Source: Comamonadaceae bacterium
Lineage (GTDB): Bacteria > Pseudomonadota > Gammaproteobacteria > Burkholderiales > Burkholderiaceae_C
DNA length: 64,000 nt
Assembly (NCBI GenBank): GCA_013297875.1
Contig: JAAFIW010000002.1
Location: 180,627 to 244,626, forward strand
Reading direction: 5' to 3'
Positions 3,312 through 61,695 of this stretch are shown piece by piece. The number at the start of each line of letters is the position of its first letter. Within the stretch, counting starts at the first letter, position 1. A program made the position numbers and the translations under genes. The notes under the pieces were generated by a model. It made no database searches. It was not told the origin of the DNA and saw nothing but the letters and a program-made list of their open reading frames with translations.

Positions 3312-3353
3312 TTTGCTCAAGCAGCTATATATTTTGTAGCATTTTCACGATAG
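3312..3353. repeat. Copy (reverse orientation) of the dispersed ATAGCTGCTTGAGCAA repeat, with an AT-rich tail
   Basis: tttgctcaagcagctatatattttgtagcattttcacgatagc. The low-GC patch forms the 3' end of purN. Confidence 0.6.
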
Positions 3354-3906: not shown

Positions 3907-3977
3907 AGCGCCGCGATTATCTGGTTGCTACGATGTGCGGCAGTTTCAAACAACAAACAACGAGGACACAAAGACAC

Positions 3978-23646: not shown

Positions 23647-24294
23647 TTGAATAAACCCCGCTACGCGCTCATTGTTGATGACCATCCGCTGGTAGGGCGG
23701 GGTATTGCCGAGCTGTTGAAGACCTTTGAGTTACTGGATGCCACCCATCAAGTGAGTGATGCCGCGGCTGCTCTGGAGCTGGCGGCCCGCTTGGGTGAAC
23801 CAGCGATTGCGGTGGTGGATTTCTGGTTGAATAACGACACCAGTGTTGAATTGATCGGACAGTTGCGAACCCAGTATTCTCAATGCGCGGTATTGGTGAT
23901 CAGCGCCGATGCCAGTGCGGAAGTGCAAGCCAAAGCCAGGCATATCGGTGCGCAAGGCTTTATCGACAAGCAGGCAAGTGCCGATACTTTTGGGCAAGCA
24001 ATTCTGGCGGTGTTGGGCGGCATGACCTACTTTGACGCGCAGGCCAGTACAAAAAACTCCGCCATCCGGCCGTATGATGTGCCAGTGACGGCCGCCGAAC
24101 TGGGTTTGTCGCCCCGGCAAGGTCAAATACTCGCACTGGTTTTGGAAGGGTTGCCAAACAAGCGGATCGCCCAGTCCTTGTCGTTGTCTGAAAGCACGGT
24201 GAAAGAGCACGTAACCGGTATTTTGCAGCGGTTGGGGGTGACCAACCGGGTAGAAGTCATTACCAAACTAAGAGGTCGCAGGCTGGTCATTTGA
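23647..24294 (+). CDS. LuxR/FixJ-family response regulator
   Basis: Receiver domain (ALIVDDHPL...) plus a C-terminal LuxR helix-turn-helix (LSPRQGQILALVLEGLPNKRIAQSLSLSESTVKEHV). TTG start. Confidence 0.8.
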   Translation: MNKPRYALIVDDHPLVGRGIAELLKTFELLDATHQVSDAAAALELAARLGEPAIAVVDFWLNNDTSVELIGQLRTQYSQCAVLVISADASAEVQAKARHIGAQGFIDKQASADTFGQAILAVLGGMTYFDAQASTKNSAIRPYDVPVTAAELGLSPRQGQILALVLEGLPNKRIAQSLSLSESTVKEHVTGILQRLGVTNRVEVITKLRGRRLVI

Positions 24295-24310
24295 GAGCAG
24301 CATTCCAATC

Positions 24311-26306: not shown

Positions 26307-27914
26307 CTAACGCAACACGGCTGACCACAGACTGACACGCGCCCCGGTATTGGCCACATCATTCTGATTCCACACCACAACACCCTGCCCTGCGGCGTTC
26401 ATAGCGAAGTCTGGATCGTTACCCACACTGCCTGCGCCAGTTTCAACCGGAGTGGAAGCGCTCCATTGGCCACCTAAGGTCAGTCGACGCGACACCAAAT
26501 CAAAGTTGAGTGTTGCAACCAGGTTGGGGGAATAGACCAACACCGCTTGTCCGTTGCTATCCATTTGTAGCGTGCGGTTGATGTTGTAGGTGTCTACAAC
26601 GACGGGCGCAGTCCATCCGGTCGCAGGGTTGTACTGCATGCTGCTCAAAGCTGCCAATGCGCCGCCGGACCACGCAGCTACGGCACGGCCATCGGGCGTC
26701 ATGGCCAACTGAATGCGTGCACTTCCTACGGAGCTGGTCTGGCCTGTCACTTCAACTGCACCTTGCCACCCGGTGTCGGCGCGGTAAATGTTGTAGTGAA
26801 CCGTTCTGTTTTGCAGCCACATCGCAATGCCGTTGCCTTGTGCATCGATGGCTACAGCTGGATTGTTGTCGGGATCCACATTGGTGAACAGCGTCTCTAT
26901 GCTGACTGGCACACCCCAGCCACCTGCGGTGGTGAAGCGCGCCGCCTTCATGCTGTAGTTGTTGTCGCCTGGGTTGCTTTCTCTCCATACGGCCAGTGAA
27001 CTGCCATTGCTGCTAAGGGCAAGCGCGGCTCGCTGTGCTACAGACGAGCCGCCATTGTCCACTCGCGTCCACGTTCCCCATTGCCCGCCAACTGGCAGTG
27101 CAGCACTCTCGACGTCCGAGCCCGAGCGTAGAACACTGATGTTTCCACCGACGTCTATCACCGCAGAGGTCAATTCTTGGGTAAACCTGAGGTTAGGCGG
27201 AGAAAACGCAGCACTCCAACCCGTAGCCACCGTGTTGCGGCGCGTTTCCATATTGGGTCGAATCCAGGTGGCAACGCCAGCATCGTCCAAAAACACTCTT
27301 CCTTGCGCCGCAGCGGTGGAAGACGAAAGCGTCAGTCCAGGAACCACAACGGCTGTCTGCCAACCTGTCGCTGGCTGATAACGGCGGGAAAAAACTTTGA
27401 ACGTGCTGCCGTCAGGCGTGCCATCTGACTGCTCCCACAGCGCAATCGCATCGCCTCTGCTGTTCACAGCCACCAGCTGCCTGCTACGCACATTGAAGTC
27501 ATCACTGTTTTCCAGCAATTGCGGCGCTTGCCAAGCAGCGGCGGGCGGGACAGGTGTGCCGGCCGCAGGTGGTGGGGCGGGTGTAGTCGGTGGAGGAGTC
27601 GGGGTACCAGCCGCAGGTGGAGCGGGTGTGCCAGCCGCAGGTGGTGCAGGTGTGCCAGCCGCAGGTGGTGCGGGCGTACCAGCGGCAGGTGGAGCGGGCG
27701 TTCCAGACGCAGGCGGGGCGGGCGTACCAGCTGCAGGTGGTGCAGGTGTGCCAGCCGCAGGTGGTGCGGGCGATGCGGGGGGTGTGCTAGCACTGGGGGG
27801 TGTTGCAGCAGCCGGTGTGTCGTCGTCGCCACCACAGGCGCCCAGGCCCAGAGTCAACGCAAACAACACGGTGAGTTGGGCCAGCTGTTTGCCCTTTGTC
27901 GATTTGGTTTTCAT
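26307..27914 (-). CDS. Lipoprotein with a (PAAGTPAP)n linker and a C-terminal repeat-rich (Trp/Gly-containing, possibly beta-propeller-like) domain
   Basis: MKTKSTKGKQLAQLTVLFALTLGLGAC lipobox. A 24-bp tandem repeat lies at about 27560-27790. Recurring ...TGW.. motifs occur in the C-terminal 400 aa. Confidence 0.6.
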   Translation of the reverse strand: MKTKSTKGKQLAQLTVLFALTLGLGACGGDDDTPAAATPPSASTPPASPAPPAAGTPAPPAAGTPAPPASGTPAPPAAGTPAPPAAGTPAPPAAGTPAPPAAGTPTPPPTTPAPPPAAGTPVPPAAAWQAPQLLENSDDFNVRSRQLVAVNSRGDAIALWEQSDGTPDGSTFKVFSRRYQPATGWQTAVVVPGLTLSSSTAAAQGRVFLDDAGVATWIRPNMETRRNTVATGWSAAFSPPNLRFTQELTSAVIDVGGNISVLRSGSDVESAALPVGGQWGTWTRVDNGGSSVAQRAALALSSNGSSLAVWRESNPGDNNYSMKAARFTTAGGWGVPVSIETLFTNVDPDNNPAVAIDAQGNGIAMWLQNRTVHYNIYRADTGWQGAVEVTGQTSSVGSARIQLAMTPDGRAVAAWSGGALAALSSMQYNPATGWTAPVVVDTYNINRTLQMDSNGQAVLVYSPNLVATLNFDLVSRRLTLGGQWSASTPVETGAGSVGNDPDFAMNAAGQGVVVWNQNDVANTGARVSLWSAVLR

Positions 27915-29625: not shown

Positions 29626-30288
29626 ATGGACAAAATCGCCATTTTTTTGCAGTCCCGCGCCAACTGGTGCGGCATCGGCCTGTCCACGCTGGCCCTGGTG
29701 CTCGGCGGCATGAGCCCGATGCTGGCAAGCGCCGGTGCACTGGCGGCGTTGGCGGTAGTCGGATATGCAGTTGGCTTTGGTGTGTGCGGCTGGCTGTTTG
29801 GTTTTCCCCACCTGTCGGGCGCGGCCTGGGCTGAGCTTGAGTTTGAAGACCACAGCGATGCCCGTACCAGCATGCAGCCCGCATTGAATGCCATCGCCCG
29901 GCTGGCGGAGCAAAACCCGCAGAACCGATTGCCAGACAGCCTGCAACGCAAGGTACTGGACTTGTGCCAGCGATTAACCGCCTTGCTGGAGCAGTGGGAG
30001 CGCAGCAAGGGCGATTTGTCACTGCAAGACAGTTTCAATGCCCGTCACATTGCTTTGACCTATCTGCCCGATGCGCTGAAGACCTACTTGGCCATTCCCC
30101 AGCGGTTTGCTACCCACAAACGCCTGGACAACGGCCAAACGGCACAAGAGACTTTTTCGGCGACACTGGACGATCTGAGTGCGAAGATTTTGCAACTCAG
30201 TGAAGACTTGGCGGCGCAAGATGCCCAGTCGTTCCTGAACCATTCGCAGTTCCTGCAAGAGAAATTCAGTCGGTCGCGGCTTTCATAG
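29626..30288 (+). CDS. Small membrane protein (2 TM plus soluble C-terminal domain), first gene of the flotillin/ATPase/PLD operon
   Basis: ATG at 29626 (MDKIAIFLQSRANWCGIGLSTLALVLGG...). The ORF track starts it at a TTG at 29623. There is a 9-nt gap to the next gene. Confidence 0.5.
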   Translation: MDKIAIFLQSRANWCGIGLSTLALVLGGMSPMLASAGALAALAVVGYAVGFGVCGWLFGFPHLSGAAWAELEFEDHSDARTSMQPALNAIARLAEQNPQNRLPDSLQRKVLDLCQRLTALLEQWERSKGDLSLQDSFNARHIALTYLPDALKTYLAIPQRFATHKRLDNGQTAQETFSATLDDLSAKILQLSEDLAAQDAQSFLNHSQFLQEKFSRSRLS

Positions 30289-30296
30289 GGGGGGTC

Positions 30297-30920
30297 ATGC
30301 TTGGTTTTCCAGACGCTGTATTGGCATTCCCAACAGCGATATTCACCACGCTGCTGGGCGTGGCGGCGTTTTACTGGCTTTTGGCCTTGGTGGGGCTGGT
30401 CGATTTTGAGTCGGTCGACCTGCATGCCGACCCTGACATCGCCGATCCAGACGTGAGCAGCCTGGCCGGAATCATCGTGGCCTTTGGGTTACACGGCGTG
30501 CCGTTTTCCATCGTTTTCAGCCTGTTGGTGCTGCTGTCGTGGACGCTCAGTTGCCTGGGTGCCATGTGGCTGCTGGGGCTGCTTCCTGCATCCATTCCGA
30601 TCTATGTCAGTGGCTCGCTGCTGGCGCTGGCCAGCGTGTCGCTGGCCGTGCCGATTGCGGCGCGCATGGTCAAGCCGCTACGCCGTTTGTTTGTGACCCA
30701 CGCAGCCATCAGCAATGCGTCGCTGGTCGGCCAACACTGCAAGGTGCTGACCCAAACGGTAGATGAAAAGAACGGCCGGGCCGAGGTGGTACAACGGGGC
30801 GCGAATATCAACATCCGGGTGTGGGCCCGCATGCCCAACACACTGGCGCGCGGCGGCAGTGCCCGAATCGTTGCCTACGACGAGCAGACCGCCCGCTACC
30901 GCATCGAGGCCGACGGGTGA
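30297..30920 (+). CDS. NfeD/YqiJ-like membrane protein (TM helices plus C-terminal OB-fold)
   Basis: N-terminal TM region and a C-terminal ...GRAEVVQRGANINIRVWA...ARIVAYDEQTARYRIE OB-like domain. It sits directly upstream of a flotillin gene, as in yqiJ-yqiK. Confidence 0.65.
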   Translation: MLGFPDAVLAFPTAIFTTLLGVAAFYWLLALVGLVDFESVDLHADPDIADPDVSSLAGIIVAFGLHGVPFSIVFSLLVLLSWTLSCLGAMWLLGLLPASIPIYVSGSLLALASVSLAVPIAARMVKPLRRLFVTHAAISNASLVGQHCKVLTQTVDEKNGRAEVVQRGANINIRVWARMPNTLARGGSARIVAYDEQTARYRIEADG

Positions 30921-30980
30921 TGACCCACCTCAAAAATATTTACTGTTGATTTGTTGTTTCACTCGACTTGGAGTCTTTCT

Positions 30981-33020
30981 ATGGAACCCATCCTCATATC
31001 CGTCGCAGCGCTGGTCATCCTGGTTTTTGTGCTGTTTGCGATGTTCGCCAAGTTCTATCGAAAGATCGAACAGGGCCATGCGCTGATCGTCAACACCATG
31101 CGCGCCGAGCCCACTGTCACCTTCACCGGTTGCATGGTCTACCCGATCATCCACAAGGCGGAGCTGATGGAAATTTCGGTCAAAACCATCGAGATTGACC
31201 GCTCCGGCCGCGAGGGGCTCATCTGTAAAGACAATATTCGCGCCGACATCAAGGTCAAGTTTTTTGTGCGCGTGAACAAGACCGCCGAAGACGTGTTGAA
31301 AGTGGCCCAGGGCGTGGGCTGCGAACGGGCTTCGAATCAAGATGCGTTGGAAGACCTGTTTTCTGCCAAATTCTCCGAGGCGCTGAAGACCGTGGGCAAG
31401 TCGATGGAATTTGTCGACCTGTACCAGGCGCGGGACCATTTCCGCGACGAGATCATTCGCCAGATTGGCGACGACCTGTCGGGTTATGTGCTGGAAGACG
31501 CAGCCATTGACTACCTGGAGCAAACGCCGCTGTCCAAGCTGGATGGCAGCAACATCCTGGACGCCCAGGGCATCAAAAAGATCACCGAACTGACGGCCGT
31601 GGAAAGCGTGCGCACCAATGAGTTGCGCCGCAATGAAGAGATGCAGATCAAGAAGAAGAACGTTGAAACACAAGAGACGTTGCTGGAGTTGGATCGCCAG
31701 GCGGCTGATGCGCAGGCCCGCCAGAGCCGCGAAGTGGCCTCGGTGCGCGCCCGCGAAGAAGCAGAAACCGCCAAGGTGCAGGCCGAAGAGCGCACCAAGT
31801 CTGAAATGGCCCGGCTGCAGGGCGAGCAACTGGTGGCGGTGCAAAGCGAAAACTCGCAGCGCGAAAAAGAAGTGGCTGAAAACAACCGCAAGCGTGCGGT
31901 GGCGATTGAAGAAGAAAAGGTCACACGCGCCCGTGAGCTGGAAGTGGTGGACCGCGAAAAGGAAGTGGCCTTGCAAAGAATCGACAAGGAGCGTGCGCTG
32001 GAGGTGCAGAAGAAAGCCATTGCCGACGTGATCCGCGAGCGCATCGTGGTGGACCGCACTGTGGCCGAGCAGGAAGAAGCCATCAAGGAATTGCGCATGG
32101 TGTCGGACGCCGAGCGCAACAAGAAATCCATCATCATCCTGGCCGAGGGCGAGGCCGAGCAAAAAATGATCACCGAAGTGAAAGCCGCCGAAGCCCAGGA
32201 GCGCCGCGCCCGCCACAAGGCCACCGAAGACATTACCCTGGCCGATGCCCACCTGAAGGTTTCCGAGAAAAACGCCGAAGCCAAGAAACGCGACGCAGAA
32301 GGCATGGAGGCCATCGGCGCTGCGCCAGGCCTCGCTGCCGCGCGCGTCATGACCGTGACGGCCGACGCCAGACAAAAGCAGGGTATGGCCGAAGCCCAGG
32401 TCGCAGAGGCCACGGCACTGGCCGAAGCCAGCGGTATGAAGGCCAAGTTTGAAGCCGAGGCGCAAGGCAAAGAGAAACTGGGCTTGGCTGACGTGCAGGT
32501 GCGCGCTGCTGACGCCGAAGCCACCATCAAGGTCGGCGATGCCGATGCACAAACCGTGCAGGCCCGCTTCTCCGCCGAGGCCAAAGGCCTGCGCGAGAAG
32601 TTCGAAGCCATGAAAGCCATGAGCCCCGAGACACGCGACCACGAAGAGTTCCGCATGCGGCTGGAAATGCTGCACGCCGAAACCCTCAAGGGCATCGACG
32701 CGCAAATGGTCATTGCCAAAGAGCAGGCCGAGGTGCTGGGCAAAGCCTTGGCCAATGCCAAGATCGAAATGGTTGGCGGCGACGGCAGCTACTTCGACAG
32801 TTTCGTCAAGGCACTGGCCGTGGGCAAAGGCATAGACGGCGCGATTGCCAAGAGCGACACGCTGAAAATCGCGTTGAAAGACCACTTGAATGGCGATCGC
32901 AACATAGTTGACGACGTGGGCCGCCTGGTGGGCGCTTTAGGCGATTCATCGGGTGAGCTGAAGGATCTGGCGATTGCGTCCCTGCTGTCCAAGACCGGCA
33001 AAGATGGCAAAGCCCTGTGA
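30981..33020 (+). CDS. Flotillin-family SPFH/band-7 protein (YqiK-like)
   Basis: ATG at 30981 with GGAG 8 nt upstream. N-terminal TM, then an SPFH domain, then a long Glu/Ala/Arg/Lys-rich coiled coil and a C-terminal flotillin tail. Total 680 aa. Confidence 0.85.
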   Translation: MEPILISVAALVILVFVLFAMFAKFYRKIEQGHALIVNTMRAEPTVTFTGCMVYPIIHKAELMEISVKTIEIDRSGREGLICKDNIRADIKVKFFVRVNKTAEDVLKVAQGVGCERASNQDALEDLFSAKFSEALKTVGKSMEFVDLYQARDHFRDEIIRQIGDDLSGYVLEDAAIDYLEQTPLSKLDGSNILDAQGIKKITELTAVESVRTNELRRNEEMQIKKKNVETQETLLELDRQAADAQARQSREVASVRAREEAETAKVQAEERTKSEMARLQGEQLVAVQSENSQREKEVAENNRKRAVAIEEEKVTRARELEVVDREKEVALQRIDKERALEVQKKAIADVIRERIVVDRTVAEQEEAIKELRMVSDAERNKKSIIILAEGEAEQKMITEVKAAEAQERRARHKATEDITLADAHLKVSEKNAEAKKRDAEGMEAIGAAPGLAAARVMTVTADARQKQGMAEAQVAEATALAEASGMKAKFEAEAQGKEKLGLADVQVRAADAEATIKVGDADAQTVQARFSAEAKGLREKFEAMKAMSPETRDHEEFRMRLEMLHAETLKGIDAQMVIAKEQAEVLGKALANAKIEMVGGDGSYFDSFVKALAVGKGIDGAIAKSDTLKIALKDHLNGDRNIVDDVGRLVGALGDSSGELKDLAIASLLSKTGKDGKAL

Positions 33021-33029
33021 TGCTGTGCC

Positions 33030-36000
33030 ATGGAATCTGCTGACATCGACCCCGCACCGGCTGAGCAAACCGAAAGCCTGGTCGCCGCAAGCGGCAGCTA
33101 CGAGCTGCTGAAAAAACGCCTGACGGCCCACGGCCTGGCGCTGCGCGACAAGGCGCAGGCGCTGAACGCGGCGCGCGTGGCGCAGTTTGGCAAGTCTGAA
33201 CAGTCGCTGGTGCTGCGCACCCGTGCCCGCACGCAAAACAACTGCGTGGCGCGCGACATCGTGCGCATTGGTGACCAGCTTTTGTTTGGCTACAACGTCT
33301 TCATTGGCCTGCGCAAAGAAACCAGCGTGGGCGATGTGTTTGGCTTGTACCGGCTGGCCGCGCATGCCGGTGAGCCCGAGCTGGAAGCCTTGCCGTTGGC
33401 GGGCAGCTTTCTGGAAGACGCCCGTTTTGCGTCTGACTTCAAGGAGCTGTACGCTTACTACAAGCAAGCGCAGTTGCTGCAGTTGCGCGTCACGCAGGGC
33501 AAGCTGCTGGCGTCGTTTCAGATCGGCCAGCAGGTGCAGGATGTGCGGGTGTTTCGCTGGCAATTGGCAGCCGATGGTGCGCCCCAGTACATCGACAACC
33601 GGGGTGAGCGCGACATGGCGCTGCCCCCCAGCCATGACTTTGAATGGATACCCACCACGCGAGCCGACCACGCCGAGGGCCGCCACCCGCACATCAGCAT
33701 TCTGGACACGGTGTTTGTGGAAACGGTGGGCGGCGACCTGACCGTCAAGATCGAGAACAACACCGAAACCGGCCTGGGCATCTACAGCGAGCCGGTGGAC
33801 GACAAGAACCAGTCGCTGACCGATGCCGAGGTGGCCTACGCCAAGCTGGGCCAGTTGATCCTGCTGCGCATACGGCCGTATCGCGAGCAAACCACGCGCT
33901 ACCTGGTGTTCAACGAGCGCACGCAGCAGGTCACGCGCATCGACGCGCTAGGTCTGTCGTGCGTGCAGTTGCCCGAAGACCATGGCATTGTGTTTCCCGG
34001 TGGCTACTACCTGCAGTCGGGCGAGTTCAAGCACTTTGACCTGCCCGCTGACGTGGGCAGCAGCCTGCGCTTCAAACGCATGCTGCGCTCGCCCAACGGT
34101 GAGGACGTGTTGTATTTGTTCTACCAGCCGGGCAGCGGCCACTATGCGCTTTTCACCTACAACCTGATCGACAAGACGCTGGCTGCGCCCATCGTGGCCA
34201 ATGGCTATGCGCTGTACCCCGATGGCAAGGTGCTGGTGTTTCAGGTGGGGCCGGGCGAGCCCACACGCGTGCACCCCATGCAGCTGTGGCAAACCGCGTT
34301 TTCCAGTGAAGAACACGCCGGTACTGCCGCGCTGGGCACCGGCTTCTTTGGCCGCATTGGTAATGCCGAATTGGTGCGAGGTGTGGCCGACCTGATGGGC
34401 ATTGCCCGCGCTGTGCAAGAGCAGGCACCCACCCGCGCTGCCTACGACGACCTGATACGCCAGTGCGCCCGCGTGACCGATGCCTATTTCTGGCTGGCCG
34501 ACCCCGAGGCCGGCGCGGCCTTATCTGACCTGCAACGCATCAGCGAGGCCGCACGCACCACGCTGGCCGAGTTTGAAAAGGTCGAGCAAATCCGCCGCGA
34601 GACCGCACGTGCACTCGACGAGGCGCAGACCAAGCAGAAAACGCTGATGGTCGATATCGCCAGCACACTGTGGCGCAAACCGGAAGACTTCATCCACGCG
34701 CTGGGTCGCCTGCGTGAGCGCCGCGGCAACCTGGAAACGCTGAAAGAGCTGCGCTACACCGATTTGCCCCGCATTGAGGCAATGCAAACCGAGCTGGAAG
34801 CCGAGCAGCAGCGTGTGGGCGAGCGGGCCATGGTCTTTTTGGCTGATGAACAGGCGTTTGCCAGCCACCGCCAAAACCTCACCAAGCTCGGCACCGACCT
34901 GGCACAAGCATCTACCAGCCCTGGCCTGCAAATCATTCTGGATAGCCTGGACGAAACCGCCGCTGGGCTGGACTTGCTGACCGAGCAACTGGGCGGCCTG
35001 CCCGGTGGCGATGCGGTGCAGCGCACCACCATTCTGGAGCGCATCTCGGCGCTGTACACCGACATCAACCGCCTGCGCGCCGATGCCCGAAGCCGCCGCA
35101 AGGCGCTGGGCTCGCACGAGGCTGCGGCAGAGTTTCTGGCCCAGTTCAAGCTGTTTGGCCAGGCGGTGGAAAACGCGCTGGACTTTGCCGATAGCCCCGA
35201 AAAATGTGACGAGGCACTCACCCGCCTGCTAGCCCAACTGGAGGAACTGGAAGGCCGCTTTGCCGAGCAGGAAAATTTCCTGGCCGACATTGCCACCAAG
35301 CGCGAGGCTGTTTATGAAGCGCTAACCGCCCGCAAACAAACGCTCACGCAAGCACGCCAGCAGCGCGTGCAAGGCCTGGTGACGGCGGCCGGCCGCATTC
35401 TGGACGGCACGCAACGCCGTGTGGCGCAACTGAGCAAGCTGGAAGAGGTGCACAGCTACTTTGCCGCCGACATGTTGATCAGCAAGCTGCGCAAGCTGGT
35501 GGCCGACATGCGCGCGCTGGGTGCGCAAGTGGCAGCCGACGACATCGAGACCCGGCTCAAAACCAGCCGCGACCAGGCCCTGCGCGGCGTGCGCGACCAG
35601 GCCGAGCTGGTGACCGAGGGCGGCAACAACCTGCGCCTGGGCAAGCATGTGTTCACCATCAGCCGGCATCCGCTGGAGCTGACACTGGTGCCCCACAGCG
35701 ACGGCCTGGCCTACCACCTGACCGGCACCGACTACCTGGTGCCCGTGAACGACCCCGCACTGCAGGCCTACAAGCCGTATTGGCAACAAGCCCTGCCGTC
35801 TGAAACCGCCGCCATCAGCCGCGCCGAATACCTGGCCGGTTGCCTGCTGGACGCATCGCTACAAGGCAGCACGCCACTGCCCTGGGCACGCATGACAGAG
35901 CTGGTCGCGCTGGGGCCAGAAGGCCATGCGGCGCTGCTGGATCAGGTGCGGCAATTTGCCGCCGAGCGTTACCAGGACGGCTACGACAAAGGCGTGCACG

Positions 36001-38216
36001 ACGAAGACGCCACACGCATCTTTGGCGCGCTGGCGGCGATGCAAGACGCAGCCGGTCTGCTGGCCTGGGGCCCGACCGAACGCGCACTGGCCCTGCTGTT
36101 CTGGCACGATGGCCGCAGTGGCAGCGAACGCGAGTCGCTGCAGCGCCGCGCCCGCTCGGCGCTGCAGGTGCAGCAGCTGTTTGGCGCACGTGACAGCCTG
36201 GCGTCGCTGGAGCGGGAATGTGCCCAGGCCCTGGCGGTGTTTGCCCAGGCCGTGGGCTTTGAACTGGAAGGGGCTGCTGATGCCGAGCGCATGGCATCGC
36301 TATGCGCGCAGGCCGCCGCCTATCTGGTGCGCGAAGTGGCCCACGAGGGCGGCGCTGAAACCTGGGTCATCAGCGGCGCGGGTGAAGACCTGGCTGCCGC
36401 CCTGCGGCGCGAGCTGGAGCGCGGTGGCCAATGGGCCAGCTGGCAGCGCAGCCTGGAGGCGTCGACTCCCACCGAGCGCTGGCAGCAGGCGCGCAGCTGG
36501 GTCAAGGCCTTTGCCGGCAAGCAAGACGCGTCTACCCATGACTGGGTCGACGATGCGGCCGGCCTGCTAGCCGTTCCGGTCAAACGCAAGCGCGTGAATG
36601 CCTCGCTGGACGCGACGGTAGAAGGCCTGCGCGGCGAACACACGCGGGTGGACAACAGCCGCATGGCCTTGAACCTGAACGATTTCTGGCGGCGCTTCAG
36701 CTTTCACCGCGACCGCGTGGTGCCCGGCTTCCAGGCGCTGCAAAAGTTGCACCACAGCCTACTCGCCACTGAGAAAACCCGGCTCAGCCTGGCGCAGTTT
36801 CAGGCCAAGCCCTTGCCCAGCTTTGTGCGCAACCGCCTGATTGATGAGGTGTATTTGCCGCTGATTGGCGACAACCTGGCCAAGCAGCTGGGCACCACCG
36901 GCGCAGGCAGCCGCACCGACCGCATGGGCCTGCTGCTGCTGATCTCGCCGCCTGGTTATGGCAAGACCACGCTGATGGAATACGTGGCTGACCGCTTGGG
37001 CCTGGTGTTTGTGCGCATCAACTGCCCGGCGCTGGGCCACGACGTGACCGCGCTGGACCCTGTGTCGGCCGCCAACAGCGCCGCGCGCCAGGAGCTGGAA
37101 AAGCTCAACCTGGGCCTGGCCATGGGCAGCAATGTGATGCTGTACCTGGACGACATCCAGCACACCAGCCCGGAGTTTCTGCAAAAGTTCATCGGCCTGG
37201 CCGACGGCACCCGCCGCATCGAGGGTATGTGGCAGGGCCAGGCCCGCAGCTACGACATGCGTGGCAAGCGCTTTGCGATTGCCATGGCCGGCAACCCCTA
37301 CACCGAGTCGGGCGATGTGTTCAAGATCCCCGACATGCTGGCCAACCGGGCCGACATTTACAACCTGGGCGATGTGCTGGCTGGGCGCGAGGCCTTGTTT
37401 GCGCTGTCGTACATCGAAAACAGCCTGACCAGCAACCCGGCGCTGGCACCGCTGTCGTCGCGCGACCCGCGTGATGTGCAATTGCTGGTGCGCCTGGCGC
37501 AGGGCGAAGACGTGGCCAGCGGCGACTTTGCCCATGCCTACAGCAGCGCCGAGCTGGAGGAGTTGACGGCCTTGCTCAAGCGCCTGTTCCGCGCCCGCGA
37601 CCTGTTGCTCAAAGTCAACCTGGCCTACATTGAGTCTGCCGCTCAGCGCGACAGCTACCGCACCGAGCCGCCCTTCAAGTTGCAGGGCAGCTACCGCAAC
37701 ATGAGCAAGCTGGCCGCCAAGATCACGCCGCTGATGCACGACGACGAGCTGAACGCGCTGCTGCGCGACCACTACCGCGGCGAGGCACAAACGCTGACCA
37801 CCGGCGCGCAAGAAAACCTGCTGAAGCTGGCGCAGCTGATGGGCGCCGCCACCGACGAAGAGAACGCACGCTGGAAAGCCATTTGTGATGAATTCGTGCG
37901 CCAGCGCAAGGCCGGTGGGCAAGACGCCGATGGCACCACCCGCATCGCCAACGCCCTGATGGACGTGAGCCGCGCGGTCGATGAACTCAAACCCGACGGG
38001 CAAGCCCCCGACAGCGAAGGCAAACGAATGGCCGAAGCCGTGCTGCAACTGGCCGTGACCTACCGCACGGTCATCATGCCGCTGATCGCTGCCACCGAAA
38101 AACGCATGGACGTGGACCACAACATCAGCAAGCGGCTGGAGCTGCTCTTGGCCCAGGCTGACGAGATCCGGTCTTCGCGCCCACGGCAGCCCAAAAATAC
38201 GGACGGTTCAGCGTGA
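33030..38216 (+). CDS. 1728-aa protein with a C-terminal MoxR/AAA_5-like P-loop ATPase domain and a very long helical N-terminal region. Function unknown.
   Basis: Single uninterrupted ORF. Walker A LLLISPPGYGKTTLMEYV at about aa 1290, Walker B NVMLYLDDIQH, and the sensor-like RFAIAMAGNPYTE (ATMNP-type). The remaining ~1250 aa are coiled-coil-like with no motif I can name. It sits 9 nt after the flotillin gene and is translationally coupled to the PLD gene downstream. Confidence 0.7.
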   Translation: MESADIDPAPAEQTESLVAASGSYELLKKRLTAHGLALRDKAQALNAARVAQFGKSEQSLVLRTRARTQNNCVARDIVRIGDQLLFGYNVFIGLRKETSVGDVFGLYRLAAHAGEPELEALPLAGSFLEDARFASDFKELYAYYKQAQLLQLRVTQGKLLASFQIGQQVQDVRVFRWQLAADGAPQYIDNRGERDMALPPSHDFEWIPTTRADHAEGRHPHISILDTVFVETVGGDLTVKIENNTETGLGIYSEPVDDKNQSLTDAEVAYAKLGQLILLRIRPYREQTTRYLVFNERTQQVTRIDALGLSCVQLPEDHGIVFPGGYYLQSGEFKHFDLPADVGSSLRFKRMLRSPNGEDVLYLFYQPGSGHYALFTYNLIDKTLAAPIVANGYALYPDGKVLVFQVGPGEPTRVHPMQLWQTAFSSEEHAGTAALGTGFFGRIGNAELVRGVADLMGIARAVQEQAPTRAAYDDLIRQCARVTDAYFWLADPEAGAALSDLQRISEAARTTLAEFEKVEQIRRETARALDEAQTKQKTLMVDIASTLWRKPEDFIHALGRLRERRGNLETLKELRYTDLPRIEAMQTELEAEQQRVGERAMVFLADEQAFASHRQNLTKLGTDLAQASTSPGLQIILDSLDETAAGLDLLTEQLGGLPGGDAVQRTTILERISALYTDINRLRADARSRRKALGSHEAAAEFLAQFKLFGQAVENALDFADSPEKCDEALTRLLAQLEELEGRFAEQENFLADIATKREAVYEALTARKQTLTQARQQRVQGLVTAAGRILDGTQRRVAQLSKLEEVHSYFAADMLISKLRKLVADMRALGAQVAADDIETRLKTSRDQALRGVRDQAELVTEGGNNLRLGKHVFTISRHPLELTLVPHSDGLAYHLTGTDYLVPVNDPALQAYKPYWQQALPSETAAISRAEYLAGCLLDASLQGSTPLPWARMTELVALGPEGHAALLDQVRQFAAERYQDGYDKGVHDEDATRIFGALAAMQDAAGLLAWGPTERALALLFWHDGRSGSERESLQRRARSALQVQQLFGARDSLASLERECAQALAVFAQAVGFELEGAADAERMASLCAQAAAYLVREVAHEGGAETWVISGAGEDLAAALRRELERGGQWASWQRSLEASTPTERWQQARSWVKAFAGKQDASTHDWVDDAAGLLAVPVKRKRVNASLDATVEGLRGEHTRVDNSRMALNLNDFWRRFSFHRDRVVPGFQALQKLHHSLLATEKTRLSLAQFQAKPLPSFVRNRLIDEVYLPLIGDNLAKQLGTTGAGSRTDRMGLLLLISPPGYGKTTLMEYVADRLGLVFVRINCPALGHDVTALDPVSAANSAARQELEKLNLGLAMGSNVMLYLDDIQHTSPEFLQKFIGLADGTRRIEGMWQGQARSYDMRGKRFAIAMAGNPYTESGDVFKIPDMLANRADIYNLGDVLAGREALFALSYIENSLTSNPALAPLSSRDPRDVQLLVRLAQGEDVASGDFAHAYSSAELEELTALLKRLFRARDLLLKVNLAYIESAAQRDSYRTEPPFKLQGSYRNMSKLAAKITPLMHDDELNALLRDHYRGEAQTLTTGAQENLLKLAQLMGAATDEENARWKAICDEFVRQRKAGGQDADGTTRIANALMDVSRAVDELKPDGQAPDSEGKRMAEAVLQLAVTYRTVIMPLIAATEKRMDVDHNISKRLELLLAQADEIRSSRPRQPKNTDGSA

Positions 38217-38920
38217 CGACCAACGCCGAAGCCATGCAAGACCTGCTGGATCAACTGGAAAGCTCTCTGGCCGACCTACGCCTGGACGACGCTGAAAAGC
38301 ACAGCCTGGCCCACACCCTGCGCCAGGCCCAACCGCCAGAAGACGGCTTCAGGCAACTGCGCAACCACGCCTTCGCGCTGGCCCGCAACCGCCTGGCTGC
38401 GCAACAAGACCCCATGGATGTGCTGCGCTGGCTGGAAGCCGTGGTGCGCGCGCTGGACGTGGCCCGTGCCCCGGCGCAGGCCATTCGCTCCAGCGCCCAC
38501 TTCAGCCCCGGAGAAGCCTGCCTGAACACCATCGTTCACCACTTGCGCAGCGCCCGTCGAACGGTCGATTTGTGCGTCTTCACGGTGTCCGATGACCGCA
38601 TCGCTCAAGAGGTGCTGGCCGCCCACGCACGTGGCGTGGCGCTGCGCTTCATCACCGACAACGACAAGGAAACCGATTCCGGCAGCGACGTGACCCGCTT
38701 GCGCGCAGCCGGTGTGCCCACGGTGGTTGACCGCACCGACGCCCACATGCACCACAAGTTTGCAATCTTTGATGGGCAGTGGTTGCTCAACGGCAGCTAC
38801 AACTGGACGCGCAGTGCTTGTACGCACAATGAAGAGAATCTGGTGGCGACGAATGACGCAACGTTGGTGCGGCAGTTTCAGGGGGCGTTTGATCAGTTGT
38901 GGGGGCAATTGGGCGATTGA
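38213..38920 (+). CDS. Phospholipase-D-superfamily (HKD) nuclease-like protein
   Basis: GTG at 38213 overlaps the upstream stop (GTGA). An alternative ATG lies at 38234. Single HKD motif HMHHKFAIFDGQWLLNGSYNWTRSA (HxK...D...GSxN). About 235 aa, typical of Nuc-like endonucleases. Confidence 0.8.
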   Translation: MTTNAEAMQDLLDQLESSLADLRLDDAEKHSLAHTLRQAQPPEDGFRQLRNHAFALARNRLAAQQDPMDVLRWLEAVVRALDVARAPAQAIRSSAHFSPGEACLNTIVHHLRSARRTVDLCVFTVSDDRIAQEVLAAHARGVALRFITDNDKETDSGSDVTRLRAAGVPTVVDRTDAHMHHKFAIFDGQWLLNGSYNWTRSACTHNEENLVATNDATLVRQFQGAFDQLWGQLGD

Positions 38921-39309: not shown

Positions 39310-40725
39310 ATGCCAGCACTTGAACGAAAGCTTATTGACAATCTCAAAGAACGTCTTATCAAGCATCTGGAATCTACGGGTGGCTATGAGTCCATTGATT
39401 TCATCGATGCGGGGGGGTCAGCGGCAATATTTAAGGTTCGAAGAAGTGATGGACTTAGGGCCGTCAAGATTTTCAATCCTGACCTATTTTCTGGAGCACC
39501 AGCCGCAGCAAGCAAGCGGCGCCTTGACGTCCAGCGGCGGCTAATTGATCACAAGTGCCCCAGCCTCATCCAGACTTATTTTGCCGATGAGTCGGACGGT
39601 ACAGCGATTGTTGAAATGGAATTCAACGAATGGCCGCAACTTTCGAGGCAACTTGGCAAAGTCCCAGATGACGCCATTGGCCGGCTTATGGACCAACTGG
39701 TAGACGCGGTCAAATATCTTGAAAGCATGAATATTGTTCATCGGGACATTAAGCCAGAGAACATACATGTATCTGCAAACTTCCAAGAGCTGAAGTTACT
39801 TGATTTAGGCGTTGCTAGAGAGTTCGACCACTCTGACGAGAGCGACGCCGGAATGACCGACTCGGGCGTTGGCCGACCCTTCCTTGCTACTGCGCAATAC
39901 AGCTCGCCGGAATATCTATTCCGATTAGATGAGCCCACCGATAAATTATGGAAGGGCTTGAACTTTTATCAAGTTGGCGCAGTTCTTCACGACCTCATTA
40001 AGAAAGAGGCGTTGTTCCAACATGAAATTCTGCTAGAGAATCGCTGGCTAGTCGCTCGGGCGGTTCTCACGAAGCAACCCAGCTTCTCCGACAGTGACAC
40101 GAAGCGCCTCGCAGCAGAAAAGGCGCTAGCGCTTCGCTGTTTGACCAAAGACCTCGACACACGTTTGTCTTTGGTTGGCTGGGAGGAGTTCCAATTCAAC
40201 ACGATCGATGACCCACTAACTGCGCTGAAGACCAAGTTGTCGAAAGGATTAGGACATTTAGGAGAAGTTTCCAAATCAACTTCCGCTGCCCGACTCAAAT
40301 ACGAACGACATGAGTACTGCACTCGAATATTTGAGAGGGTTCGAACCGAGCTAATAGCAGTTTGCGGCACGGAATTGCCAGTAACAATGATTACCGACTA
40401 CTCTGGCGATCCCATGAATATCGGGTTTGCCGTCAGTCCAGAAAAGTCAATTCTCGTCCGTATCGAATGCGACGTCTCTTGGAACGCTGGAATCTATGAA
40501 AAATCAGCGCTGATGGAGGTTGGAGCCATGTTTCTTCCAACTTCATCCAAAGCCCGATATGCGGAAACCCCGATGAAGGCCTGCTTAGAGATGAGCGTTG
40601 GTGCCGCCGAGGACGAAACGGTAACGTCTATCGCGAATAGTATTGCCAAACTGATAGGACTTGCACTTTCGCGCATTGAAGCAACGGGCGGAGATCCAAG
40701 GACGCTTCAGGGAATTTCGGTTTAA
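39310..40725 (+). CDS. Hanks-type Ser/Thr protein kinase domain protein with a ~220-aa C-terminal domain that has no recognisable motifs
   Basis: Gly-rich loop DAGGSAAIFKV, the VAIK-type Lys in RAVKIF, catalytic loop IVHRDIKPENIHV, LLDLGVARE (DFG-equivalent) and YSSPEYL (APE). Low GC. Confidence 0.8.
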   Translation: MPALERKLIDNLKERLIKHLESTGGYESIDFIDAGGSAAIFKVRRSDGLRAVKIFNPDLFSGAPAAASKRRLDVQRRLIDHKCPSLIQTYFADESDGTAIVEMEFNEWPQLSRQLGKVPDDAIGRLMDQLVDAVKYLESMNIVHRDIKPENIHVSANFQELKLLDLGVAREFDHSDESDAGMTDSGVGRPFLATAQYSSPEYLFRLDEPTDKLWKGLNFYQVGAVLHDLIKKEALFQHEILLENRWLVARAVLTKQPSFSDSDTKRLAAEKALALRCLTKDLDTRLSLVGWEEFQFNTIDDPLTALKTKLSKGLGHLGEVSKSTSAARLKYERHEYCTRIFERVRTELIAVCGTELPVTMITDYSGDPMNIGFAVSPEKSILVRIECDVSWNAGIYEKSALMEVGAMFLPTSSKARYAETPMKACLEMSVGAAEDETVTSIANSIAKLIGLALSRIEATGGDPRTLQGISV

Positions 40726-40742
40726 ACAAACGGAGGTGGCAG

Positions 40743-41903
40743 ATGAAATCGAGCTGGTGGCGAAAAAAGAACGAACTGGTCCCGGAGCAAATTAACTTTA
40801 TTAATCTGCCGCCTCAGGGGCGCTATTCGCTGGTGGGCCCGCCGGGCTCTGGCAAGACCAACCTATTGCTGCTGCGGGCCCAGTTCCTGGCTGGTAACGG
40901 CGAAAAGAACGTCCTAATCATTACCTATACCAATTCACTCTGTGACTTCATCCGCTCTGGGATTGGAAAAACGGGTCATATTCTCGCTCGTCAAGTGATG
41001 ACCTACCACTCTTGGGCGGGAAATCACATCATCGACCAACTAGGCGTCAGCAAAAAGCCCAAGGGGAGCGCCTTTGACGATGAAACCCGTGCCGAAATTC
41101 TTGAGAGGCTGAAGGAAGCAAATTCGAAGCGCCCCTCAGAGAAGATGTACAGCGCGATTTTTGTCGACGAGGCTCAGGACCTGTCGGCGAATGAACTGGA
41201 GCAGCTACTCTGTCTGAGTGACAAAATCTGTATTTGTGGTGATGACAAACAGGGCATCTTCTATCAGGACGGATTGTCCGTTGCGGAGAAACTGAAGCTC
41301 GAGAAGCATGAGCTCACAAGCCACTTCCGCATCGGTCAGCGAATAGCGGAGGTAGCAGATAGATTGGTTCCTCCTCCTGCAGGAGAGACAGGTCTTGCCG
41401 CTCGAGCGAACTACAATGAGAAGCTCCAAGGCAAGTCCACTGCTGAGCTACATCCAAGGGATAGCCGTGACGAGCAGTTTGCCAAGATGGCAGAGCTGAT
41501 TCGTGTGCAACTAGTGGCTTTCATTGATGACAATATTGGCGTCTTTGCTGGAACCAATGAGGCTATCGCGGAACTGAAGGAGCGATTCGACGCAACTGAA
41601 CTTTCTGGCCTTGTTGCATACCACGGTCAGGAAGGGGGCGGTTCATTTTCGTCGGATTCACGAATTCATGTGATGACTCTCCATAACTCAAAGGGTACGG
41701 AGTTCCGAGCCGTCCACATTTTCGCTGCGGAAGAGCTTCATGGGTTTCCACTTCGCCGAACCAAGTTGGCCTATACAGGTATCACCCGAGCCCGTACTGC
41801 ATTGAATGTGTTCCGAACAGGCCCCACAAGTGTAGGCCTCGAGAATGCCTTCGCGAAACCGTCGCTCATGGACATGGATGCCCTCTTTGAGGAGGATGCA
41901 TGA
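40743..41903 (+). CDS. Minimal UvrD/Rep-like superfamily-1 helicase (about 386 aa, core motifs only)
   Basis: Motif I GPPGSGKT, Ia IITYTNS, II FVDEAQD, III CGDDKQGIFYQ, V MTLHNSKGTEFRAVHIF and VI YTGITRAR. GGAGG Shine-Dalgarno. The stop overlaps the next ATG (ATGA). Confidence 0.85.
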   Translation: MKSSWWRKKNELVPEQINFINLPPQGRYSLVGPPGSGKTNLLLLRAQFLAGNGEKNVLIITYTNSLCDFIRSGIGKTGHILARQVMTYHSWAGNHIIDQLGVSKKPKGSAFDDETRAEILERLKEANSKRPSEKMYSAIFVDEAQDLSANELEQLLCLSDKICICGDDKQGIFYQDGLSVAEKLKLEKHELTSHFRIGQRIAEVADRLVPPPAGETGLAARANYNEKLQGKSTAELHPRDSRDEQFAKMAELIRVQLVAFIDDNIGVFAGTNEAIAELKERFDATELSGLVAYHGQEGGGSFSSDSRIHVMTLHNSKGTEFRAVHIFAAEELHGFPLRRTKLAYTGITRARTALNVFRTGPTSVGLENAFAKPSLMDMDALFEEDA

Positions 41904-43378
41904 ACGAAGTGATTCGATGGTTTGCAATCGGTAAAGAGGATTTACTGGATGTGCTCCTCGGCGAAGCATCGCCGAGCGGGCAATCCTCCAGCGTTCCGCC
42001 GCTGCCTGACCTTCGGGCCGGGAAACTCGCGCTTGGGTACAGGGCGGACGACTGCGTGGCGATGTCCCCAATGTGTGGGCCCGCGCTAGTGATCGTTGAG
42101 GACGACTCCGCCACAGAAACAATGTCGTGGCTACGCGCGTTCGCCGACGAAGCGTTTCCCATGAGTCAGTTTGCGCGAATAGTGAAACTCAGTGACTGGG
42201 TCATGTTCTCGTCAATGCGGAAGAACTTCAGCCAGGTTGGAGATTTCTACCCGGAGAGGTGGGCTTCGGTTTCGGTTGGTGAAGTGATGGCACAGGCCGA
42301 GTCGGATGTCGATTTGCAGAACATGCCGCTGTCCCGCTTGGCAAGTTCACTAACTTTGCCAGTTGGACGAGCCTCCCATCTTTTTGACAGCGGCGACGCG
42401 ACCCAGCAATGTGTGGATAGACTTCGGATCGTTTCGAGCGATGCGAGGTTCGTTCATAGACCCATAACCGTTTCTCAACTCACTCCTATCTGGGCTCTAT
42501 GCAGCGCCAGGATTGGGGGCCATCTTGAGGCGCAAGAGTCAGCTCAAATGGTGGTCAAGGCGGCAAGCGGATACTTTCGCGACCAAGCGGACCTAATGCC
42601 ACCAGAAGACGGTCTCTTCCTTGAGCGCTATGTGGGTCTCCAAAGCGATTCCGCGGAGGAGCGCGTCATGGCGTTCAATGAGTTCTCTCGCGATGTTCTC
42701 AAGTTCCCAGCCTCGCAGTTAGCGTCGTCGGGTGCGCCCCTGCTCGCTGCAGCCGCCTTCATGGTGGGGCGCAGCACATCTCATGTGTTCCTGTTGAATC
42801 ACTTTCGTAGAGCAGCACCCGTGGCGTTTGCTTGGTTTGGCCTGATAGCTGCCCTCGCAGGCTCACGCTGCTGGGATGGCGAATGGCTGCGGGCAGTCAA
42901 GGGTGCGGAGCGCCTTCTCAAGCCTCGGTTCGAATGGACCGACACCTCACCAGCAGACATTGGATGGCCTGAGTTCGCATGGCTCGCCAGCTTGCGCGAC
43001 GATGTCTACCAGTTGGTAGAACTGCCTAAGATGCTGCCGCGTACTCTCGGGGTCGAGGTCGTGCCCGGTGTTGTACTACAGGTTCGCCTTGGACAGGGAA
43101 GCGGAGGCGATGAGATGCACGCTGTTCGTGTGACCTCTGCGAGGGAGCATGAATTGGCGGATGCACTCAACCAAATCCTGGAAGTTGCACTAAAGGTCCG
43201 AGGACATGAAGTGCGAAGCAATGCCCCTGAACGTGGCCGCTACGCCGGGCGTGGCCGCCAATCTCAACAGTCTTTCGACCTAGATCAACAGTCTTTCGAC
43301 CTAGAGGACCGCCCAACCGGCATCACAGGTAAAACATCTAGTGGGAAAAAGGGTAAGCGCGACATAGAGAGCCCCTGA
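41900..43378 (+). CDS. Hypothetical protein (492 aa), translationally coupled to the helicase, no recognisable domain
   Basis: Clean ORF with a GAGGAGG Shine-Dalgarno. GC content is intermediate between the island and the host. C-terminal Arg/Gly/Gln-rich tail with the short tandem QQSFDLDQQSFDLE. Confidence 0.6.
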   Translation: MNEVIRWFAIGKEDLLDVLLGEASPSGQSSSVPPLPDLRAGKLALGYRADDCVAMSPMCGPALVIVEDDSATETMSWLRAFADEAFPMSQFARIVKLSDWVMFSSMRKNFSQVGDFYPERWASVSVGEVMAQAESDVDLQNMPLSRLASSLTLPVGRASHLFDSGDATQQCVDRLRIVSSDARFVHRPITVSQLTPIWALCSARIGGHLEAQESAQMVVKAASGYFRDQADLMPPEDGLFLERYVGLQSDSAEERVMAFNEFSRDVLKFPASQLASSGAPLLAAAAFMVGRSTSHVFLLNHFRRAAPVAFAWFGLIAALAGSRCWDGEWLRAVKGAERLLKPRFEWTDTSPADIGWPEFAWLASLRDDVYQLVELPKMLPRTLGVEVVPGVVLQVRLGQGSGGDEMHAVRVTSAREHELADALNQILEVALKVRGHEVRSNAPERGRYAGRGRQSQQSFDLDQQSFDLEDRPTGITGKTSSGKKGKRDIESP

Positions 43379-43614
43379 ACTTAGCGCTAGCAAGGTGCCG
43401 AGCACGACCGCTGGGGCCTTTCATCAAGACAGCGGCAATCTACCTAGGCGCCTAACGGAGAAAGCTGACTAGTCTGAAGTCATATTGCGTGTGTCAGCGT
43501 CGATCAGCAAAACGCCTTTTGTTGTGTCTCTGCTTGGCGGGCACTAATGGCCTTTGTTGTCATGTAACTCGGGTAAAAAGACGTGGTGAGTTACGAATTC
43601 CGTGGAGGCTCCTT

Positions 43615-61608: not shown

Positions 61609-61695
61609 GCGCGGGTGGCGAAATTGGTAGACGCACCAGGTTTAGGTCCTGACGGTGGCAACACTGTGGGGGTTCGAGTCCCCCCTCGCGCACCA
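61609..61695 (+). tRNA. tRNA-Leu (anticodon UAG), class II with long variable arm
   Basis: Acceptor GCGCGGG/CTCGCGC (one G-U pair), D-arm GCGAAATTGGTAGACGC, anticodon arm CCAGG-TTTAGGT-CCTGA with UAG at 34-36, long variable arm, T-arm GGGGG-TTCGAGT-CCCCC, discriminator A, encoded CCA. Folded by hand. Confidence 0.8.

Follow-up and report, generated by a model that had tools for sequence, protein, structure and literature searches.

What does an operon do that combines a flotillin-type membrane scaffold with a giant ATPase and an enzyme of the phospholipase D (PLD) superfamily? Such a string of genes lies at 29.6-38.9 kb of a 64,000-nucleotide stretch of DNA from a Comamonadaceae bacterium (contig JAAFIW010000002.1, positions 180,627 to 244,626), the whole of which was analysed and is called the window in the following. 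An earlier note on this DNA had not recognised the arrangement and had read it as an anti-phage or abortive-infection system. Judged by gene content and gene order, the locus is a shortened, PspA-less and PLD-bearing form of a published operon family, to which a lineage-specific gene (g1) is added. It shows no sign of being a new defence system, and the operon type is already in the literature; new here is a further locus of a computationally described operon family. As to its role, sequence comparisons slightly favour an operon of the phage shock protein (PSP) envelope-stress network, i.e. a membrane-stress or membrane-remodelling module with a scaffold-remodelling ATPase and a PLD.

Gene order and relation to a published operon family

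Five co-directional open reading frames (ORFs), g1 to g5, were confirmed on the + strand of the window. They are listed here together with the domains of the giant protein:

29626-30288, + strand: g1, 220 aa, supported by ORF and gene call
30297-30920, + strand: g2, 207 aa, putative YqiJ/YuaF-type (NfeD-like) inner-membrane protein
30981-33020, + strand: g3, 679 aa, flotillin-family (SPFH2/YqiK-like) scaffold
33030-38216, + strand: g4, 1,728 aa, giant AAA+ ATPase, signature gene of the module
33141-34490, + strand: DUF3686 domain of g4 (aa 38-487, Pfam PF12458)
34851-35102, + strand: DUF7902 of g4 (aa 608-691, Pfam PF25472)
35547-36809, + strand: middle domain of g4 (aa 840-1260), mostly helical with small beta-sheets
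36822-37829, + strand: AAA+ module of g4 (aa about 1265-1600)
38213-38920, + strand: g5, 235 aa, single-HKD PLD-superfamily enzyme of the mitoPLD/Zucchini type

On a public contig that encodes an identical giant protein, the same five genes were called (220, 207, 679, 1728 and 235 aa), such that the five genes reported by the earlier note are borne out both as ORFs and by an independent gene call. The note had further described spacings of 4-9 nt or overlaps throughout. This holds for g1/g2 (8 nt, with a strong GGGGGGG (G7) Shine-Dalgarno sequence for g2), for g3/g4 (9 nt) and for g4/g5, where the start of g5 indeed overlaps the stop of the giant ORF (4-nt GTGA overlap, GTG start codon). It does not hold for g2/g3, which are separated by 60 nt; here the ATG of g3 at 30981 is preceded by GGAG.

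Neighbourhoods of the giant gene were surveyed in other genomes. At least 585 stretches encoding g4 relatives were present among 185,579 species genomes scanned, and the survey covered the best 80 of these loci using iterated hidden Markov models (HMMs) seeded from the window and from annotated loci. The surveyed taxa comprised Burkholderiales, Pseudomonadales, Xanthomonadales, Enterobacterales, Myxococcota, Actinomycetota and one Clostridia metagenome-assembled genome. Neighbours were counted from matches to the family HMMs; greedy longest-ORF calls were contaminated by antisense ORFs in loci of high GC content. For the upstream gene pair, a locus counted as informative if its sequence reached at least 3.2 kb beyond the giant gene on the upstream side, and in 71 of 71 such loci a YqiJ-like and a flotillin-like gene lay directly upstream of the giant gene on the same strand.

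The giant gene was thus never found apart from the flotillin genes. The PLD gene behaved differently. It was found downstream in 16 of 69 loci (13 of these 16 also with PspA), in locus L069 it was located upstream of the YqiJ-like gene rather than downstream, and it was absent from 53 of 69 loci. It was missing even in relatives with an 83-89% identical giant protein. Where it occurs, it belongs to one orthologous family of about 230 aa that was always situated beside this operon (22 fetched loci besides the window). Together with the linkage of the core genes this supports the functional coupling of scaffold, ATPase and PLD genes that the note had proposed. The invariant core of the operon is g2, g3 and g4, while g5 is a recurrent, co-evolving accessory and g1 a lineage-specific add-on.

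Further genes recurred in the gene string. PspA together with YjfI/DUF2170 (CesT-like) was present in 35 of 69 loci, a small basic protein (family v127) in 15, a TFIIB-type zinc-ribbon protein resembling B. subtilis YdjG in 12 and a protein ending in a CorA-like FGMN segment with two transmembrane (TM) helices (family v260) in 4. A rhomboid-like gene was coupled to the stop of the giant gene in 7-8 loci. Unbiased clustering of the neighbours provided no other recurrent family and no recurrent nucleic-acid enzyme. Two plasmids illustrate the PspA-linked form in the gene order given by NCBI. On pQBR103 the genes read YjfI, PspA, rhomboid, several further genes, hypothetical protein, SPFH protein and 'DNA repair ATPase'; on a Hymenobacter plasmid they read 'chaperone Tir', PspA, DUF1449, hypothetical protein and 'DNA repair ATPase'.

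This operon was described by Ravi et al. (mSystems 2024, preprint 2020, PMC11237479) as a CesT/Tir-PspA neighbourhood with a YqiJ/YuaF protein of three TM helices, and was placed by them in the PSP membrane-stress network. These authors noted an optional HKD PLD 'in some Proteobacteria' as well as shortened operons without the PspA pair, and their Table S3 holds an example from Dokdonia. They proposed ATP-dependent sub-membrane dynamics and saw the role of the band-7, CesT and AAA+ partners in a chaperone-like assembly of membrane complexes. Their description comes from comparative genomics alone; the operon has no name, experiment or structure there. The window shares with it the three core genes in the same order. 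Along its full length, the giant protein g4 shares 41-49% identity with ATPases from PspA-linked loci (pQBR103, Hymenobacter and others), and g5 corresponds to the optional PLD, being orthologous to the PLDs beside the ATPase elsewhere. The locus differs in that it has no CesT/PspA pair within 64 kb and adds the Burkholderiales-specific g1. The novelty that the earlier note had seen in the arrangement is therefore not upheld, as the operon including its optional PLD and its PspA-less form had already been reported.

The encoded proteins

The giant protein had been credited with a C-terminal AAA_5/MoxR-type module as its only recognisable part. Pfam confirms the module but recognises more of the protein. 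The N-terminal region (aa 38-487) provides a full-length match to DUF3686 (PF12458, 'ATPase involved in DNA repair') with an E-value of 6e-195, a region that is described as beta-propeller repeats in PMC11237479. DUF7902 (PF25472) matches aa 608-691 (E 4e-22) within a coiled-coil region at about aa 500-850. The AAA/AAA_5 match covers aa 1302-1428, and the nearest structural relatives of the AAA+ module are NorQ and CbbQ of the MoxR family, which is compatible with a MoxR-type label. Within it we found a Walker A motif (SPPGYGKTT, aa 1306-1314), a Walker B motif (LYLD-D, D1374-D1375, window 37149-37154) with Asp-Asp in place of the usual Asp-Glu, a sensor-1 motif (AGNPYTE, aa 1420-1426) and the invariant R1440. 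Walker A, Walker B, AGNPYTE, R1440 and a G988-x-H990-D991-x-D993 motif were invariant in 18 g4 homologues down to 32% identity, and the Asp-Asp Walker B was invariant in 28 homologues down to about 30% identity. The Asp-Asp pair may entail slow hydrolysis or a switch-like behaviour.

Between the coiled coil and the AAA+ module lies a 420-residue middle domain, which carries the G988-x-H990-D991-x-D993 motif. This domain was modelled with confidence and has no solved structural relative, and sequence and profile searches of the PDB with g4 returned P-loop matches only. Hydropathy revealed no TM segment in g4, such that the protein is predicted to be soluble. The family is large: more than 5,600 homologues share the same full-length architecture and form 411 clusters at 50% identity (E below 1e-30). 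Between phyla the identity amounts to 44-50% over about 1,650 aa, and the gene was found across many Variovorax species. Compared with the MoxR remodellers CbbQ-CbbO, NorQ-NorD and RavA-ViaA, which comprise about 250-350 aa and have a DE Walker B, g4 is much longer (1,728 aa), has DD at this position and adds a predicted propeller as well as coiled-coil and novel middle domains.

For g2 and g3 as single sequences, Pfam and PDB searches gave nothing useful apart from a weak, sub-threshold Flot match of g3 (aa 509-564). Profile-profile comparison with hhalign was more informative and supports the YqiJ/NfeD-like and YqiK-like flotillin labels of the earlier note. The g3 family (16 members) aligned with E. 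coli YqiK over 412 columns (99.9% probability, E 1.6e-33), and Band_7 was detected directly in 3 of 16 g3 orthologs (best E 9e-11). The protein combines a single TM helix at its N-terminus with an SPFH domain, a long coiled coil rich in Glu and Ala and a C-terminal region of the flotillin type. The g2 family (16 members) aligned with E. coli YqiJ over 144 columns (90% probability, E 1.4e-6) with the same topology, which starts with a TM helix and an acidic linker, continues with further TM helices and ends in a soluble domain rich in beta structure. As no Pfam match was obtained for g2, we assign it to the YqiJ/YuaF type with moderate confidence.

The pairing of SPFH2 flotillins with YqiJ/YuaF proteins is established (Hinderhofer et al. 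2009, PMC2636767), and g2 and g3 share homology, order and topology with the E. coli yqiJ-yqiK and B. subtilis yuaF-floT pairs. In E. coli K-12 the pair stands alone and is followed by sibD/ibsD, in contrast to the window. YqiK is also shorter than g3 (553 aa vs 679 aa), which has diverged past detection by Pfam Band_7. A nucleotide-level search (blastn) with the AAA+ region found no giant ATPase in 5,426 E. coli genomes.

The last gene, g5, had been labelled a Nuc-like nuclease with a single HKD motif. The second part of this label is confirmed by Pfam PLDc_2 (E 1.9e-30) and by one HKD motif at residues 180-197 (H180-x-K182-x4-D187, G194-S195-x-N197). Enzymes of the Nuc/Zucchini branch have one HxK(x4)D(x6)GSxN motif within a domain of about 140 aa and must dimerise to form the site; g5 has both the motif and the domain. 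The first part is not supported, the nearest characterised relative being mitoPLD/Zucchini. The best PDB matches, labelled mitochondrial cardiolipin hydrolase, were human PLD6 (9lkx, E 1.4e-27) and its mouse counterpart (4ggj, E 3e-25), compared to the bacterial nucleases Nuc (1byr, E 1.3e-8) and NucT (E 1e-6). The entire 137-residue catalytic domain (window 38501-38911) is 39% identical to human PLD6/mitoPLD without gaps and has an intact HKD motif, both enzymes being tied to membrane dynamics. Among bacterial relatives of the mitochondrial enzyme, the operon-linked PLD clade may be one of the closest.

PLD6 resides at the mitochondrial outer membrane, where it is anchored by an N-terminal TM helix. 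Instead of such an anchor g5 has a soluble helical N-terminal extension of about 95 aa, which is kept in all operon-linked orthologs; hydropathy showed no TM segment, and the N-terminus starting from the GTG codon aligns with the ortholog N-termini. Zucchini/PLD6 is credited with both cardiolipin hydrolase and single-strand RNA endonuclease activity.

Proposed role in membrane stress and competing explanations

In the mechanism that we propose, g3 would be held by its single N-terminal TM anchor and oligomerise via its SPFH domain and coiled coil into a flotillin scaffold at the cytoplasmic face of the inner membrane. The polytopic g2, homologous to YqiJ, would partner this scaffold in the manner of known SPFH/NfeD pairs. 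Soluble g4, probably as a ring oligomer, would dock on the scaffold via its N-terminal DUF3686 propeller and its coiled coil. There its MoxR-like AAA+ module would assemble, remodel or dismantle flotillin assemblies, and PspA assemblies where present, at sites of membrane damage. While the gene linkage and the AAA+ fold are observed, this putative activity and its substrate are modelled on the action of Vps4 on ESCRT-III. The enzyme g5, translationally coupled to g4, would be recruited by the ATPase via its helical adaptor extension and act locally. Most likely it would hydrolyse cardiolipin or another anionic phospholipid to phosphatidic acid and thereby alter curvature or fusogenicity during repair. 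Observed for g5 are the homology to mitoPLD, the intact HKD motif and the co-inheritance with the operon; a nucleic-acid substrate as for Zucchini is a less probable alternative. The lineage-specific g1, found elsewhere with TelA, would be a membrane add-on outside the core.

We favour a membrane-stress role because the core genes were linked in 71 of 71 loci, PspA and YjfI/CesT accompany them in 35 of 69 and the recurrent neighbours are membrane proteins. Also, g2 and g3 are homologous to YqiJ and YqiK, the AAA+ module is near NorQ/CbbQ with invariant ATP-binding motifs and the PLD is near PLD6. Known systems provide parallels. A string of PspA, SPFH and zinc-ribbon genes as in B. subtilis pspA-ydjGHI is also seen in the Variovorax, Ideonella and Massilia versions of the operon. 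For B. subtilis, Scholz et al. 2021 (PMC8581546) report that the SPFH protein YdjI is required to localise PspA to the membrane, i.e. an experimentally supported link from flotillin to PspA, and Popp et al. 2022 linked PspA with Band-7/FloT and NfeD. The B. subtilis string differs in having neither an AAA+ ATPase nor a PLD and in having the TPM-domain protein YdjH as membrane partner, and the window in turn has neither PspA nor the zinc-ribbon gene. In the proposed model the operon would resemble Vps4/CdvC-ESCRT-III (PspA/Vipp1/Snf7 superfamily) in coupling an AAA+ motor to a polymerising sub-membrane scaffold, PspA being an ESCRT-III relative (PMC11237479).

Several observations weigh against this role. 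Iterated HMMs built from 39 and 38 loci detected neither PspA nor YjfI in the 64-kb window, such that the link of this particular locus to the PSP network is by orthology only. Among Comamonadaceae, the Comamonas and Lampropedia versions of g4 are only 47-49% identical. Flanks differ among relatives with a 78-90% identical giant protein, and the PLD is gained or lost among them; taken together, these differences make some horizontal movement likely. The N-terminal beta-propeller of g4 is predicted from the Pfam DUF3686 match and the description in PMC11237479, and with an invariant Asp-Asp Walker B a robust ATP hydrolysis by g4 is not assured. A literature search found no paper naming DUF3686 or PF12458 and no experiment on any member of the g4 family. 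Finally, because PLD6/Zucchini is also documented as an RNA endonuclease, homology cannot settle whether g5 acts on lipids or nucleic acids. Overall, a role of the module in membrane homeostasis, as opposed to phage defence or DNA repair, appears fairly probable, provided that a chaperone variant of this role (see below) is pooled in. The specific scheme of scaffold remodelling and lipid hydrolysis is less certain than membrane homeostasis as such.

A more far-reaching version of the membrane-stress role, which we put forward tentatively and hold to be rather unlikely, is a bacterial counterpart of a mitoPLD-type lipid-remodelling machine. Here a flotillin cage would mark a damaged or cardiolipin-rich patch, to which g4 would deliver the PLD6-like enzyme; conversion of cardiolipin to phosphatidic acid would then promote membrane fusion, fission or repair. 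If this were true, SPFH scaffolds would have been paired with mitoPLD-like enzymes before mitochondria arose, and membrane-directed AAA+ machines would gain a new class in the g4 family.

The flotillin microdomain may alternatively serve quality control or assembly, with the scaffold confining unfolded or unassembled membrane proteins and g4 unfolding or extracting these clients or inserting cofactors into them, while the PLD would be peripheral. NorQ and CbbQ mature or repair specific protein complexes, and VWA proteins are the usual type of MoxR partner. That the nearest AAA+ structures are these MoxR-family remodellers speaks for such a chaperone, as does a VWA-like gene just upstream of g1 in a relative with a 90% identical giant protein (L092). 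Flotillin microdomains of S. aureus are reported to confine and stabilise unfolded proteins (PMC11222466), PMC11237479 frames the band-7, CesT and AAA+ partners as chaperone-like, and a rhomboid protease is a recurrent neighbour. The VWA partner of the MoxR remodellers is, however, missing from both the window operon and the conserved core, and the VWA/387-aa pair also accompanies g1 where the operon is absent. The neighbourhoods hold no recurrent protein that could be a client, and the co-inherited mitoPLD-like enzyme would be left unexplained. We give this explanation only a small share of our confidence.

In the anti-phage or abortive-infection scheme, the scaffold would sense a phage-induced membrane perturbation, the AAA+ protein would transduce the signal and the PLD, acting as a nuclease, would break down nucleic acid of the phage or the host. 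The translational coupling of ATPase and PLD, the gain and loss of the PLD among close relatives with variable flanks and the presence of the operon on the megaplasmid pQBR103 are compatible with it. Defence-like genes also adjoin the operon, namely a kinase and a UvrD-like helicase in the window, PIN-MazE in L005 and SLFN_AlbA_2/HATPase_c_4 in L090 and L093. The defence models of PADLOC-DB v2.0 and NCBIfam, for which family-level scores and partner genes were required, provided little beyond generic hits. PADLOC had no model matching g1, g2 or g3 and gave no system-level match, and its matches to g4 were noise on the coiled coil (SMC-like LmuB, E 7e-6, aa 499-850) and on the P-loop (IetA, E 3e-3). 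With the PLDs of DISARM (DrmC), Mokosh (MkoB/C) and Dpd (DpdK), g5 shares the PLDc_2 fold and weak HMM matches (E 1e-8 to 1e-7; DrmC 1.7e-8, MkoB 2.4e-8, DpdK 9.5e-8), but it scores far under the NCBIfam cut-offs (DrmC 32.7 against 133 bits, DpdK 30 against 100), and none of the partner genes of these systems is present. By E-value, mitoPLD is the nearer relative of the PLD, ahead of Nuc by about 19 orders of magnitude. The core trio occurs without PLD in 53 of 69 loci, such that the supposed effector would be dispensable. A tblastn search of 50,697 phage records found no g4 homologue. Plasmid records yielded 13, and each of these records was at least 169 kb long, several being chromosome-sized. 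The identity of 44-50% between phyla is unusual for fast-evolving immune genes and fits a cellular function, and the gene extends across many species of one genus. The recurrent partners are PspA, YjfI/CesT, rhomboid, TelA, CorA-like and zinc-ribbon proteins and include no nucleic-acid enzymes. In the literature we found no paper treating the module as a defence system and none relevant on SPFH-based defence or a MoxR-flotillin link. The defence function suggested by the earlier note is thus improbable.

A role in DNA repair, in which g4 would act as a repair factor in the manner of SMC/SbcC proteins with g5 as its nuclease, is hardly credible. It is suggested by the NCBI name of g4 ('DNA repair ATPase') and the Pfam name of DUF3686, by weak RuvB matches of the P-loop and by a superfamily 1 (SF1) helicase that follows the PLD in one Pseudomonas locus (L024). 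The name has no traceable experimental basis in the literature and probably derives from the SMC-like coiled coil. The similarity to SMC proteins is limited to this coiled coil and that to RuvB to about 45 residues around Walker A. We rejected a DNA-repair function on these grounds, the name tracing to coiled-coil (SMC/LmuB-like) and P-loop (RuvB) similarity with no supporting paper. The helicase link was likewise rejected, as the SF1 helicase occurred in 1 of 89 loci; the invariant partners of g4 are two membrane proteins.

The g4 family is of interest beyond this locus. It is large and highly conserved, and it is always linked to the flotillin pair and in many loci also to PspA. Neither experiments on it nor a solved structure were found, and its database name 'DNA repair ATPase' is misleading. 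For the motor that remodels bacterial flotillins and PspA polymers, g4 is an obvious candidate. Residual interest lies in an unstudied family of giant ATPases with an orphan middle domain and an Asp-Asp Walker B, and in the closeness of the PLD to PLD6. The operon-linked PLD would offer a tractable bacterial system for the question of lipid versus nucleic-acid substrates that PLD6-type enzymes pose.

Accessory genes and surroundings of the operon

The first gene of the window operon, g1, encodes a hydrophobic hairpin (about aa 22-60, two TM helices by hydropathy) and a helical tail, and had no match in Pfam, NCBIfam or PADLOC. Its family comprises 231 proteins; all named matches and all contigs examined were from Burkholderiales. 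Elsewhere g1 follows TelA or a pair consisting of a 387-aa protein and a VWA-like protein of about 560 aa. Sites of the family are located at window 29626-30288, L090 8698-10654, L091 7191-10678, L092 913-6995 and L093 5141-7136. In L091, g1 follows the 387-aa/VWA-like pair far from any flotillin operon. With a presence in 3 of 89 loci scanned and its independent travel with TelA or the VWA pair, g1 was ruled out as a core component or a PspA substitute. It resembles a small membrane module of its own, for which a site upstream of the operon is common. The related loci compare as follows:

L005: g4 identity 89%; g1 absent, PLD absent; a PIN-MazE toxin-antitoxin pair follows
L092: g4 identity 90%; g1 and PLD present; TelA, and 387-aa and VWA-like genes upstream
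L093: g4 identity 83%; g1 present, PLD absent; TelA upstream
L090: found via g1; g1 present, PLD absent; TelA upstream
L006: g4 identity 78%; g1 and PLD present; TelA downstream

In L005 the PIN-MazE pair takes the place of the PLD downstream. In the same locus (464-3966), two genes lie divergently just upstream of the YqiJ-like gene, one for a stand-alone MoxR-type AAA_5 protein and one for a DUF5682 protein.

The rhomboid-like protein has 188 aa and a GASGW motif. In L024 its gene (15226-15792) shares an ATGA overlap with the stop of the giant gene, and it was also found in L035, L033, L032, L025, L037 and L007. The coupling was seen in Pseudomonas, Xenorhabdus and Limnobaculum; in some cases the gene is situated between ATPase and PLD. 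The v260 protein is a 260-aa protein encoded after the PLD in Variovorax, Eleftheria and Aquabacterium (L002 15983-16765, also L004, L009, L049 and L057). Its two C-terminal TM helices with the FGMN motif resemble CorA-type Mg2+ channels.

Within the window, the GC content of the operon (0.57-0.67, about 0.62) is similar to that of the remaining sequence, and a scan for sigma-70-like promoters and intrinsic terminators gave nothing above shuffled controls. A block of low GC content (0.50-0.53, window 39310-45369) begins 390 nt past g5. Two of its products are a Ser/Thr kinase (PADLOC PD-T4-6-like, E 1.9e-22) and a short helicase of the UvrD-like type (PADLOC candidate C3a187 'NERD+UvrD', E 2.5e-22; also GajB-like); two more, of 492 and 626 aa, had no match in Pfam or PADLOC. 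The block is outside the flotillin operon and looks like a separately acquired cassette, possibly related to defence. Upstream of the operon lie genes for a LuxR-type response regulator and a hybrid histidine kinase (window 23647-26131), and a 535-aa minus-strand ORF (window 26307-27914) had no Pfam or PADLOC match. The sole tRNA of the window is a tRNA-Leu at 61609-61695 (61.6 kb).

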